A stretch of 64,000 bases of DNA from an uncultured Clostridia bacterium (GTDB lineage Bacteria > Bacillota > Clostridia > TANB77 > CAG-508). The stretch lies in NCBI GenBank assembly GCA_949155365.1, contig CASCUT010000005.1, positions 754-64,753 on the forward strand, read 5' to 3'. Positions 60,231 through 62,327 of this stretch are shown piece after piece. The position numbers and the translations under genes are program-made. Numbering within the stretch: the first letter of the stretch is position 1; each line of letters begins with the position of its first letter. The notes below the pieces were generated by a model that was given only the letters and a program-made list of their open reading frames with translations, made no database searches and was not told the origin of the DNA.

Positions 60231-61865
60231 TTATTTCGATAACAAAACTAATTTTGCCTGCTTACACTCTTCTCCAGAAAAGCATACAATCCTTTTCTTT
60301 TGAGGGTTTAAAAGAATAGATATGAAATCTCCAAACTGTCTTACAAAGTCTTGGTGATTTTTCGTATCGTTTGTACTAAAACGAAGCTCTGTTTCCACTG
60401 GGTGACTGTGAGCAAATCCAAGAAACTGGACATCTCCATAGGAGTCTTGATAGACTTTGTCTGCTTTTGCCATTGTTTCATTGATAATAGCCACTTCCTC
60501 TTGTATTTGCTGAAGACAGAAGTCATCCATGGTAGCCATGTTGCCAGCTCGATTGTATAAAATGGCTGGTACTACATATTTGATAAGAGATATCTCTTGC
60601 CATTGGTTCCCAATTAAAGCTACTTGTTGTTCATACAAGTTACTTGGGTGGCATTCTCCATAATGAAAAAGATGGTATAAATCTCTTGTGGCTTGTGGCG
60701 TAAAGATAACTGTTTTCGTTTCTTCCTCTTTTAATGGCTTTATGGTAAGATGGTCCATTCTTCCATTCTTTTGTACTAATGGTGTCACAATATCCACATA
60801 AGAGGGATTAATTGGTTCTTTTTTTCTCTCTTGCTTTCCTGAAAAGAAGGTTTTATAGCAAAACTGTGGTGTATTGGTTTCAAAGTCAAAGGTATGAAAA
60901 CTATCTCCCTTGCAGTATTTCCAATATTCACAATCTTCACACTGTTTCGCCTTTGTTCGATTTGGATTTCTGTAATATTCAAATTTTTTGTTCCAAACAT
61001 CACAGAAATTGTCCTGTAATACGTTCCCTTGTATTAACTCTTTCCTTCTAGGAATATTAGGACATCCAAAAATATCTCCATTAGAAAGAATAGAAGCTAC
61101 ATGAATTCCTGTATAGCAAGCAAATTTCTTGCCGGTTGGGTCTAAGGTATGTTCTGTATTTCCAAAATAATGAGAGCAACTCCATGTGATAGGAAGTGGC
61201 GAAGAGGAATGCTTTTTCATGAAGTCAAATAAAAAGGTATAATCCTCTGCACTTAGCATTAATTCTTCGTTTTCTTTTGCCCTACCAATGGGGTCAATTC
61301 CACTAATTCTAAGAGAATCAATTTCTAACATCGTAAGCATACGATATACTTCTGGCAGTTCTGTAATATTCTTTTTGGTTGCAATAAAAGTAACTTGAAT
61401 ATGCTCTACAAAATCACTCTTTTTCAATTTTTCAATTGCAGAAATGATTTTGTTAAAAGAACCTGGTACATGCCGAAACTCTTCATGCGTTTTTTTCATT
61501 CCATCGAGACTGATGGTAATCGTTGACATGTGTGTTTCTTTCATTTTCTGAATTACCTCATCGGTTATTAGCATTCCATTGGTTACTAATCCCCATTTGA
61601 AGCCCAGCATATCGGCATAACCTGTAAGTTGAAACAAATCCTTTCTCATAAGAGGCTCACCGCCTGTGATGTTAAGCATAATTGTTTTGGTTCCAAACTG
61701 ATTTGCTACATCATCTAATACTTTTTTTAATATTTCCACCGATAACTCGTCTTTTTTACTAGCCGTGCACCTGCTCCCACAATGGTCGCAGAGTGCATTG
61801 CATTGGCTAGTTACTTCGAAAAAGAGGGTATACAATGGATATTTTCTATTGACACTCTTATCCAT
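60231..61865 (-). CDS. Radical SAM/SPASM maturase fused to C-terminal JAB/MPN-like domain
   Basis: CNALCDHC, TGGEP, WGLVTNG, SPASM CYTG...GCP...CEDC...C; C-terminal EQQVALIG...FAHSHP...FSTND. Confidence 0.85.
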   Translation of the reverse strand: MDKSVNRKYPLYTLFFEVTSQCNALCDHCGSRCTASKKDELSVEILKKVLDDVANQFGTKTIMLNITGGEPLMRKDLFQLTGYADMLGFKWGLVTNGMLITDEVIQKMKETHMSTITISLDGMKKTHEEFRHVPGSFNKIISAIEKLKKSDFVEHIQVTFIATKKNITELPEVYRMLTMLEIDSLRISGIDPIGRAKENEELMLSAEDYTFLFDFMKKHSSSPLPITWSCSHYFGNTEHTLDPTGKKFACYTGIHVASILSNGDIFGCPNIPRRKELIQGNVLQDNFCDVWNKKFEYYRNPNRTKAKQCEDCEYWKYCKGDSFHTFDFETNTPQFCYKTFFSGKQERKKEPINPSYVDIVTPLVQKNGRMDHLTIKPLKEEETKTVIFTPQATRDLYHLFHYGECHPSNLYEQQVALIGNQWQEISLIKYVVPAILYNRAGNMATMDDFCLQQIQEEVAIINETMAKADKVYQDSYGDVQFLGFAHSHPVETELRFSTNDTKNHQDFVRQFGDFISILLNPQKKRIVCFSGEECKQAKLVLLSK

Positions 61866-61880
61866 TTGCTCTCCTTTCTG

Positions 61881-62327
61881 TTACTCGAGTTCAGAAATAG
61901 AACCTGTTGTTGTAATGCTGTCTTCTTCCCTATAGGCTTCTGCTTGGTTCATGGCTTCTTCTACACTCACTGCCATAGGACAACCATACAGACATTTGAT
62001 AGACATAGGGTCTCTTCTATACACTACTTCTCTTCTACCTACTGGTTCTGGATCTCCCTTCTTAATTACAATGAGACCATTTTCAACTATTCCTAATTCT
62101 TTTAAGGAACGAAATTCTCCTGTGCAAATTTCAACCAGATTGGTCTTTTCTTCATTTTCCATATAAACCTTAGTTGTTAAATAAGATTGCTGAAAACAAG
62201 AGATATACCCCAAATCTCTTAAACATGCTTTCAACTGCACTTCATCGATATCGACGGGAATTGCTACTTTTTTATAATGTTTCCGGTTATAAGTAATATA
62301 CACATGCATCAAATTTCTTTCTTCCAT
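61881..62327 (-). CDS. Putative precursor: ubiquitin-like domain plus CLYGCP tail
   Basis: RSLKELGIVENGLIVI resembles the beta-grasp C-terminal motif; 15 nt upstream of the rSAM gene. Confidence 0.6.
   Translation of the reverse strand: MEERNLMHVYITYNRKHYKKVAIPVDIDEVQLKACLRDLGYISCFQQSYLTTKVYMENEEKTNLVEICTGEFRSLKELGIVENGLIVIKKGDPEPVGRREVVYRRDPMSIKCLYGCPMAVSVEEAMNQAEAYREEDSITTTGSISELE

Follow-up and report, generated by a model that had tools for sequence, protein, structure and literature searches.

A ubiquitin-like protein with a YGCP tail and a radical SAM/SPASM-JAB fusion enzyme form a candidate protein-maturation cassette in gut Clostridia

Towards the end of a 64,000-nucleotide stretch of DNA from an uncultured Clostridia bacterium (assembly GCA_949155365.1, contig CASCUT010000005.1; the window in what follows), two adjacent genes encode a putative substrate and the enzyme that would mature it. 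Gene 1 codes for a predicted ubiquitin-like (Ubl) protein with an invariant Tyr-Gly-Cys-Pro (YGCP) motif close to its C-terminus, and gene 2 for an enzyme in which a radical S-adenosylmethionine (SAM)/SPASM region is joined to a predicted JAB/MPN+ metalloprotease domain. We read the pair as a two-gene protein-maturation cassette, with gene 1 as substrate and gene 2 as bifunctional maturase, and give this best reading in full a probability of roughly 0.55; taken by itself, the proposition that the two are a substrate and maturase pair acting at YGCP is held with good confidence. Both genes lie on the minus strand, gene 1 ahead of gene 2, and are separated by a gap of 15 nt (61866-61880), which agrees with the operon described in an initial annotation made from the sequence alone. 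The coordinates of all features are collected in Table 1.

Table 1. Features of the cassette and its flanks, in window coordinates (aa, amino acids; pLDDT, predicted local distance difference test).
Feature	Position	Strand	Basis or remark
Gene 1, putative substrate/precursor: Ubl, linker, xYGCP and tail	61881..62327	-	148 aa
Ubiquitin-like beta-grasp domain (predicted), residues 1-92	62052..62327	-	AlphaFold2 and Foldseek
Variable Pro/charged linker, residues 93-111	61995..62051	-	Length and sequence vary in alignment; pLDDT < 50
L113-Y114-G115-C116-P117 motif, proposed radical SAM/JAB site	61977..61991	-	Invariant in 32/32 rows
Acidic C-terminal tail, residues 118-148, MAxSVxxAxxxAExYxxxDSxxTTGxI	61884..61976	-	Invariant or near-invariant columns
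Gene 2, radical SAM/SPASM-JAB enzyme, predicted bifunctional	60231..61865	-	544 aa
Radical SAM and SPASM part, residues 1-340	60846..61865	-	C22xxxC26xxC29 at 61779-61802
JAB/MPN+ (JAMM) metalloprotease domain (predicted), residues 341-544	60234..60845	-	E412 at 60630-60632, H486-D500 at 60366-60410
Promoter-like site TTGACA-17-TAAAAT, TG before -10	62462..62490	-	~135 nt upstream of gene 1; 11/12 matches
Intrinsic terminator, 16-bp hairpin and U-tract	60182..60221	-	Directly 3' of the gene 2 stop codon

Gene 1 matched no family in Pfam, NCBIfam (0 at E <= 1), PADLOC or PHROG. An AlphaFold2 model built from 32 aligned rows reached a pLDDT of 74-85 over residues 1-90, which is moderate, and was poor beyond. 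When residues 1-90 of this model were compared with structures in the PDB, Foldseek returned the Ubl domain of TBCE, UBX domains, ubiquitin variants and ISG15, with a best E of 8e-5 and a target TM-score of ~0.7; 15 ubiquitin-like matches had E <= 0.001, and a structure search of the Atlas agreed. On the model and these matches, residues 1-90 are predicted to be a ubiquitin-like beta-grasp domain, as the initial annotation had supposed. Hallmarks of Ubl proteins were sought as well, and the domain has no C-terminal Gly-Gly, a single Gly91 standing in that region, and no ThiS/MoaD or ubiquitin Pfam match. From the later part of the domain onwards, the protein reads RSLKELGIVENGLIVI (residues 73-89), KKGDPEP, the variable linker and PMSIKCLYGCPMAVSVEEAMNQAEAYREEDSITTTGSISELE.

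The seven residues LYGCPMA (L113 to A119) were invariant in 32/32 aligned relatives of gene 1, as were tail positions S121, V122, A129, E130, Y132, S137 and G142. The initial annotation had singled out CLYGCP; its LYGCP part stood in every row, but the first Cys, C112, varies among the 32 relatives and can be C, A, V, Y or F. Gly91 at the end of the beta-grasp domain was likewise invariant in these 32 close relatives, with P93 and P95 nearly so; Gly91 and the PEP that follows the domain are absent in distant Ubl-type precursors (L015, P0211, P0212, P0217, P0223). Distant relatives of gene 1 gathered with a profile over 1.84 billion representatives retained [LM]YGCP[MVI][AS]. Clustering yielded 103 relatives of gene 1 and 88 relatives of the C-terminal domain of gene 2, and because the relatives are this numerous and the motifs invariant, the observation stands far above chance.

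Two side observations concern the gene 1 type of protein. A 254-aa protein from a metagenome (P0227) consists of four near-identical repeats with CLHGCPVAQSV, in which His takes the place of Tyr, and resembles the tail; it could stem from misassembly or be a repeat with no relation to it. In two related genomes, an extra Ubl paralogue of 112-114 aa lies within 1-3 kb of the cassette (L002:9308-9646 and L006:5382-5726) and ends in ...KIVFVNVD, without the YGCP module.

Over residues 17-313, gene 2 matched the Pfam families Radical_SAM (PF04055; 1.3e-19, 71 bits) and SPASM (PF13186; 3.3e-6, 27.7 bits), both above cut-off, and the invariant residues of this part comprise C22, C26 and C29 as well as seven further Cys, so that the CxxxCxxC signature and a SPASM domain are both present. 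Its best NCBIfam model was TIGR04133 'rSAM_w_lipo' (277.1 bits, E 1.8e-82), the family whose resemblance the initial annotation had pointed out, at a score below the cut-off of 425. The next models were AhbD (165 bits), NirJ2 (141), TIGR04053 (133), MftC (132) and WgkB (125), with PqqE at 77 bits and the PapB, StsB and WgkB models together spanning 100-125 bits. TIGR04103, the nif11-class maturase model that we take to represent PlpX-type enzymes, gave 102 bits against a cut-off of 725 and ranked 13th among the NCBIfam matches. The nearest solved radical SAM chain by sequence was CteB (5wgg, 5e-19), and SkfB matched at 9e-11. A phage radical SAM family of 556 profile positions, phrog_1802, also matched the radical SAM half (E 1e-35), over positions 40-399 only; the C-terminal part of that family differs from the JAB domain of gene 2.

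The C-terminal part of gene 2 (residues 340-544; 28 aligned rows) was modelled by AlphaFold2 with a mean pLDDT of 87. Foldseek matched the model with a probability of 1.00 to the Rpn11 homolog of Caldiarchaeum (6fnn, 3e-9), AMSH, AMSH-LP, BRCC36, CSN5, JAMM1 from Pyrococcus and the bacterial proteins BilC (8tyx), BubCD (9ea4) and Cap3 (9ild). The catalytic motif is made up of E412, H486-S-H488-P, eight residues between H488 and S497, two further residues and D500, which reproduces exactly the E...HSH-x8-S-xx-D noted at the outset (residues 412 and 486-500). The E, HSHP, S and D of this motif and an NPQ were invariant in 28/28 aligned rows of gene 2, and the motif ran in register with that of AMSH-LP across a 1-residue gap, which corresponds to one extra spacer residue. 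The Pfam family Prok-JAB (PF14464) gave 12 bits (E 0.19), under its gathering score of 25, and PADLOC returned a generic viperin-level radical SAM match and weak JAB models (E 0.01-0.02). Membership is thus one of fold and motif, and by its predicted structure and intact, invariant motif the C-terminal domain is a JAB/MPN+ domain, as had been proposed.

A pattern scan over one genome per species gave 15 loci, all from uncultured Clostridia or Bacillota of guts and rumen. A homologue of gene 2 lay directly after gene 1 in all 14 loci long enough to show it, the fifteenth, L014, stopping at gene 1, and together with the 32/32 rows that carry YG, this bears out the expectation that the motif is conserved and that the two genes travel together. 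When open reading frames (ORFs) flanking the cassette were clustered across the genome loci, gene 1 and gene 2 were the only ones common to them, and no E1, E2, second peptidase, tailoring or transport gene was conserved beside the cassette.

A search with the radical SAM half found 1142 relatives at E <= 1e-30, among them many proteins of 500-540 aa and 53-63% identity that retain E...HxH...S..D...NP and had escaped a word-based search with the C-terminal domain. Scanning metagenomes with the alignment of these relatives gave 80 loci, 21 of them JAB-fused (L020-L039 and the cut locus L050) and 59 stand-alone. A same-strand adjacent ORF with YGCP was present in 21/21 JAB-fused loci, compared to 1/59 stand-alone loci counted by real neighbours (L095; two more were chance ORFs), a difference with a Fisher p of 2e-18. 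All 34 complete fused enzymes from the loci retained H-x-H...S..D.

Metagenome loci, genome loci and the window together contributed 43 precursor ORFs, spread over 37 loci. In each of these proteins, xYGCP lay 15-34 residues from the C-terminus and was preceded by 22-166 aa, with a second Cys two residues before the Tyr being frequent. The N-terminal part was a Ubl in precursors of the window type and a zinc ribbon with a Ubl in L032 and P0232, whereas other precursors had a lipoprotein signal with lipobox (L026, four of five in L028, L035), a membrane anchor (L028, L037) or a short amphipathic helix (L027, L029-L031, L033) in its place, and P0230 bore an acidic-type tail on a helical non-Ubl N-terminus. 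Three types of tail were found: the acidic MAxSV..AExY..DS..TTG of the Ubl type, the basic NSKK..KLQL..YR, and a [NET][PA]-type. One locus (L028:1596-3980) holds five YGCP precursor genes in a row before a single radical SAM-JAB gene; four of the five have lipoprotein signals and one a membrane anchor, and basic tails follow [YT]YGCP[NA]S in all of them.

Tail type tracks enzyme clade. In a maximum-likelihood tree of 110 radical SAM/SPASM regions (a quick search with midpoint root and three very long-branched outgroup rows, from which rows < 300 aa and identical duplicates were left out), the JAB-fused enzymes and four short proteins of unplaced context formed one clade with a Shimodaira-Hasegawa-like approximate likelihood ratio (SH-aLRT) support of 99, within which the Ubl-type enzymes (30 rows, SH-aLRT 99) and the basic-tail type (8 rows, 97) were grouped. 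The constant element is xYGCP together with the C-terminal tail, and since JAB-fused relatives adjoin precursors that lack a Ubl, the Ubl is one of several interchangeable N-terminal modules. Because the enzyme clade as a whole does not require it, the Ubl is better seen as cargo than as leader. The earlier idea of the Ubl as a leader recognised by the JAB domain therefore finds no support in that form, as JAB-fused relatives work beside lipoprotein, membrane-anchored and amphipathic-helix precursors without one. The architecture in the window is one clade of a larger family and is not unique to this locus.

To our knowledge, TIGR04133 and TIGR04134 are hypothetical equivalogs of NCBIfam that have not been characterised. 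Among the stand-alone loci, 26/59 had an adjacent ORF with YG.P, three of these apparently by chance. Some stand-alone partners were small proteins, either secreted or in the membrane, with one or more copies of [KLVM]YG[PAVS]P, such as LYGPP or KYGPVPMYGPPVLYGPPP, and others were lipoproteins with YGxP just after the lipobox. In two loci (L095 and L096), the enzymes are true TIGR04133 members (547 and 525 bits) and the partners true TIGR04134 members (109 and 101 bits; cut-off 39.8) in which the lipobox is closely followed by EYGCP and MYGQP, so the statement in the initial annotation that partners of this family have YGxP was right. Cys occupied position x of YGxP in 21/21 fused loci versus 1 of ~23 plausible stand-alone partners, where Pro, Ala, Val, Ser, Gln or Glu was found in its place. 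Within the stand-alone set (L040-L099), partners at L045:767-1045, L048:1696-2013 and L068:1654-2016 have a signal peptide and 1-4 [KLVM]YG[PAVS]P repeats, and the repeat partners have a C-terminal membrane helix with a KKRKK-like end; these proteins look like an undescribed precursor class.

Like TIGR04133/TIGR04134, the cassette is a two-gene operon in which the best model covers the whole radical SAM/SPASM region of gene 2 and the partner carries Tyr-Gly-x-Pro, the latter being an observation made here, outside the curated definition. Unlike TIGR04133, gene 2 scores 277.1 bits, below 425, adds a JAB domain and falls in a separate clade of the tree. Unlike TIGR04134, gene 1 has no family match, is predicted to be a cytoplasmic Ubl and not a lipoprotein, and has its motif near the C-terminus where theirs is near the mature N-terminus, with x always Cys in JAB-fused precursors.

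The Tyr-Gly of the motif also invites comparison with spliceases. These enzymes excise a tyramine unit at X-Tyr-Gly and leave an alpha-keto-beta-amino amide (PMC11414181, PMC9811515), splicing at the LYG of RasA has been proven, with a loss of 135.06 Da (PMC11626197), and the splice tags of PlpXY, ...P-LYGLP-I and GYGLPI, are themselves of the form xYGxP (PMC10533398), in line with the initial annotation, which had named XYG as a known splicease site. Some splicease systems are binary, without a separate protein for the RiPP (ribosomally synthesised and post-translationally modified peptide) recognition element (RRE), and whole proteins are possible substrates (PMC11414181). According to a review, Scott et al. 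2022 discovered spliceases through a search for YG-rich ORFs beside radical SAM/SPASM genes in 189 genera, with 27 pairs confirmed (PMC10849128). Like PlpXY/PlpA, RhaX/RhaA and RasX/RasA, the cassette places a radical SAM/SPASM gene next to a precursor with X-Tyr-Gly. It differs from them in the TIGR04103 score of gene 2 (102 versus 725) and in a gene 1 that has no Nif11/NHLP leader, and the JAB domain, the invariant Cys-Pro after YG and the Ubl N-terminus had no counterpart in the splicease papers examined.

Bacterial JAMM systems provide a second comparison, and Mec+/CysO is one in which a JAMM peptidase trims a beta-grasp protein. According to PMC5925218, the Gly-Gly of QbsE is followed by a Cys-Phe that QbsD takes off, and CxnF likewise cleaves a decapeptide from behind a GG. 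The cassette resembles QbsD/QbsE, CxnF/CxnE, BilC and Cap3 in pairing a predicted JAB/MPN+ fold that bears E...HxH...S..D with a predicted beta-grasp protein that continues beyond a Gly. Unlike these systems, the JAB domain of gene 2 is fused to a radical SAM enzyme, no E1-like enzyme is conserved beside the cassette, and the Gly of gene 1 is part of Tyr-Gly ~20 residues beyond the beta-grasp domain, not at its end. The spacing of HxH-x8-S in gene 2 also differs from the x7 of known JAMM enzymes, and the Prok-JAB cut-off is not reached. With the maturases of SCIFF/ranthipeptides and sactipeptides (CteB, PapB, SkfB), gene 2 shares the SPASM architecture and a substrate that contains Cys; unlike those systems, gene 1 has only one invariant Cys, partners of relatives have Cys-free motifs, and gene 2 is without an N-terminal RRE domain, its radical SAM motif starting at residue 22.

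In our proposed mechanism, the substrate handle would be the C-terminal module, that is xYGCP with a clade-specific tail of 15-34 residues, and not the Ubl. The radical SAM/SPASM half would act on the Tyr-Gly of the motif, a proposal made because Tyr, Gly and the later Pro are the only residues common to all partners. If tyramine were excised in the manner of a splicease, Leu113 would give rise to an electrophilic alpha-keto-beta-amino amide; we rank this chemistry first among those considered and put it forward tentatively, the argument for it coming from the substrate motif since TIGR04103 is not preferred by score. The fused JAB domain would then remove the C-terminal tail, with a cut between Gly115 and Cys116 to which we would give not quite even odds, and which is suggested because Cys at x tracks the JAB domain and because QbsD/QbsE offer a precedent among bacterial JAMM enzymes. 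The tail would serve as the recognition (follower) sequence for the enzyme, which fits its clade-specific conservation, and the product would be a Ubl with a flexible C-terminal arm ending at or near the modified Leu-Gly. A predicted complex of gene 1 and gene 2 scored 0.31 against a mark of 0.32, with controls absent, and counts neither for nor against binding.

Several points weigh against this mechanism. The radical SAM part is no nearer to TIGR04103 (102 bits) than to AhbD, NirJ, MftC and WgkB (125-165), its closest solved relative, CteB, is a thioether-forming enzyme, and the stand-alone relatives manage without a protease. The invariant Gly91 could be the JAB site instead, with the caveat that it is lost in distant Ubl-type forms. 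Because the tail is as conserved as the YGCP motif, the part after YGCP could also be the product and not a discarded follower.

These last two points come together in a rival explanation, which we consider unlikely, that the Ubl is a leader on which the JAB domain docks, that the cut falls at Gly91 before DPEP, and that the modified 57-residue peptide is the product. The nearest solved JAB relatives bind ubiquitin or Ubl proteins, several having been solved in complex, the conservation of Gly91, P93 and P95 in the 32 close relatives would be accounted for, and a strongly conserved tail is what a functional product would show. Against this, JAB-fused relatives have precursors without a Ubl, the distant Ubl-type precursors listed above (L015, P0211, P0212, P0217, P0223) have no Gly or PEP after the beta-grasp domain, and in P0230 the part in front of this tail is helical and not a Ubl. 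It is also improbable, in our view, that gene 2 is a cross-linking maturase of the sactipeptide or ranthipeptide kind, which would form a bond between the Cys116 sulfur and a carbon atom in Tyr114 or in a tail residue before the JAB domain removes a flank. The match to CteB (5wgg, 5e-19), the PapB, StsB and WgkB scores of 100-125 bits, the invariance of Cys116 and the frequent second Cys two residues before Tyr would all suit such an enzyme. Only one Cys is invariant, however, and the motifs of stand-alone partners have Pro, Ala, Val, Ser, Gln or Glu where Cys would be needed; because these motifs are without Cys, the shared radical SAM target must be Tyr, Gly or Pro.

A small molecule or cofactor made in the way of pyrroloquinoline quinone or mycofactocin would require that Tyr-Gly-Cys(-Pro) be modified and excised, with the JAB domain providing one cut and the rest of the protein serving as scaffold. 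MftC (132 bits) and PqqE (77 bits) models do match, a short invariant block recurs in otherwise very different proteins, and the protease is built into the enzyme. We nevertheless regard this as very unlikely, as two cuts are required to excise the unit and the conserved surroundings offer neither a second peptidase nor a tailoring or transport gene, lipoprotein and membrane-anchored precursors in numbers of up to five per locus fit modified proteins better, and the tail shows conservation within each clade. We give least credence to a Ubl conjugation, defence or sulfur-carrier system (Bil/Bub, CBASS Cap2-Cap3, QbsE/CysO), in which the JAB domain would mature or recycle the Ubl and the radical SAM part would be an effector or cofactor enzyme. 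The pairing of a Ubl with a JAB protein is a hallmark of such systems, BilC (8tyx), Cap3 (9ild) and BubCD (9ea4) are among the JAB fold matches, and contexts are variable, with Mob_Pre relaxases adjoining the cassette in L023 and L024. Yet no E1, E2 or other gene is conserved beside the cassette, the Ubl has neither a C-terminal Gly-Gly nor a ThiS/MoaD or ubiquitin Pfam match, PADLOC gave only the generic viperin-level radical SAM and weak JAB matches, and the same enzyme clade serves non-Ubl precursors.

Returning to substrate maturation at YGCP with tyramine excision, a further and rather improbable suggestion concerns its product. Were the Ubl to bear an electrophilic alpha-ketoamide, installed by the enzyme, on its flexible C-terminal arm, it would be the natural and genetically encoded equivalent of the synthetic ubiquitin-aldehyde and ubiquitin-vinyl-sulfone probes and would trap a protease. 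Guided by the Ubl, the warhead would reach a particular Ubl-binding cysteine or serine protease, such as one of a phage, a competitor or the host gut, while sister loci would display the same warhead on lipoproteins and membrane anchors as surface protease inhibitors. The fused JAB domain would then supply the release or trimming step for which a protease has long been missing in splicease-type pathways.

The promoter-like site upstream of gene 1 is a consensus match, of which the region holds 13 against 10.5 expected in shuffles. The terminator hairpin behind gene 2 came out of direct folding (-18.1 kcal/mol, z = -6.1, with 0/200 shuffles as stable), and a scan for consensus terminators found none. 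With its own promoter-like site and this strong terminator, the pair looks like a self-contained operon. Gene 1 and gene 2 are single-copy in the source assembly, which has 1.86 Mb and 30% G+C, and most public sequencing runs that contain this stretch are mouse-gut metagenomes. In RNA libraries of two studies, contigs at a depth of 2-4 cover gene 2 in part (X18, X19) and gene 1 over its 3' portion (X20), which gives a hint, and nothing stronger, that both genes are transcribed; DNA may be present in such RNA libraries, and gaps in the coverage carry no information.

Two candidates for a second precursor in the genome were rejected: a YGCP ORF on contig C49 is a junk ORF that arose by chance, and an ELYGCPIP within a 575-aa enzyme-like ORF on the minus strand of contig C18 was also judged chance because it is internal to a long protein and has no radical SAM gene near it. 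Among the neighbours of the cassette in the window, the ORFs at 62598-63317 (+, 239 aa), 63407-63853 (-, 148 aa) and 54825-55901 (-, 358 aa) had no significant Pfam, PADLOC or PHROG match, and the ORF at 56014-56367 (-, 117 aa) had no significant Pfam or PHROG match. None of these four is kept beside the cassette in other loci.

On two short contigs, the cassette is immediately preceded by a gene for a Mob_Pre relaxase (PF01076, E 1e-41 to 4e-47; L023:1424-2611 and L024:2118-3335), and this adjacency suggests that some copies are on small mobilisable elements; a partial Mob_Pre copy occurs at L022:9-368. No match was obtained when gene 1 was compared by tblastn with deposited plasmids and phages. 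A profile scan of IMG/VR found a single locus (L100:427-967), a decayed cassette remnant on a virus-labelled contig, in which a 97-aa Ubl-only ORF runs into an ORF with the last 100 JAB residues, the tail and radical SAM part being deleted, and a tyrosine-integrase-like ORF lies ~2 kb from the remnant. A phage origin of the cassette is unsupported, since L100 holds a decayed remnant only.

The initial annotation had not recognised the architecture as described. No paper was found in which a JAB domain or a Ubl precursor is connected with radical SAM or splicease enzymes, Scott et al. 2022 (Chem 8:2659) and its supplements lying outside the literature covered. No paper was found on TIGR04133, nothing relevant to YGCP, YYGCP, LYGCP or TIGR04134 was among the matches listed, and the combination of splicease with JAMM, JAB, MPN or ubiquitin-like terms was likewise absent from the matches listed. 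A survey from the Aravind group touches on radical SAM, JAB, ubiquitin-like and SPASM proteins and describes different systems (PMC7159879), and in a 2023 review of RiPP leader proteases the words JAB, JAMM, MPN and ubiquitin are all absent (PMC10885120). What is new within radical SAM/SPASM maturation of YG-tagged proteins is the fused JAB protease and the ubiquitin-like substrate, for which a prior description in Scott et al. 2022 is possible.

If the cassette works as proposed, a JAB/MPN+ metalloprotease would join the processing enzymes of proteins that are made by the ribosome and modified after translation, and the TIGR04133/TIGR04134 'rSAM/lipoprotein' family would gain a candidate substrate motif, xYGxP. 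Should tyramine excision be the true chemistry, the products in the gut would be protein-sized molecules bearing a ketoamide that inhibits proteases, and gene 2 would be a compact single-polypeptide tool to modify and trim tagged proteins. These findings suggest that a short, portable C-terminal tag, xYGCP with its tail, directs radical chemistry and trimming on diverse proteins of gut Clostridia, a ubiquitin-like protein included.

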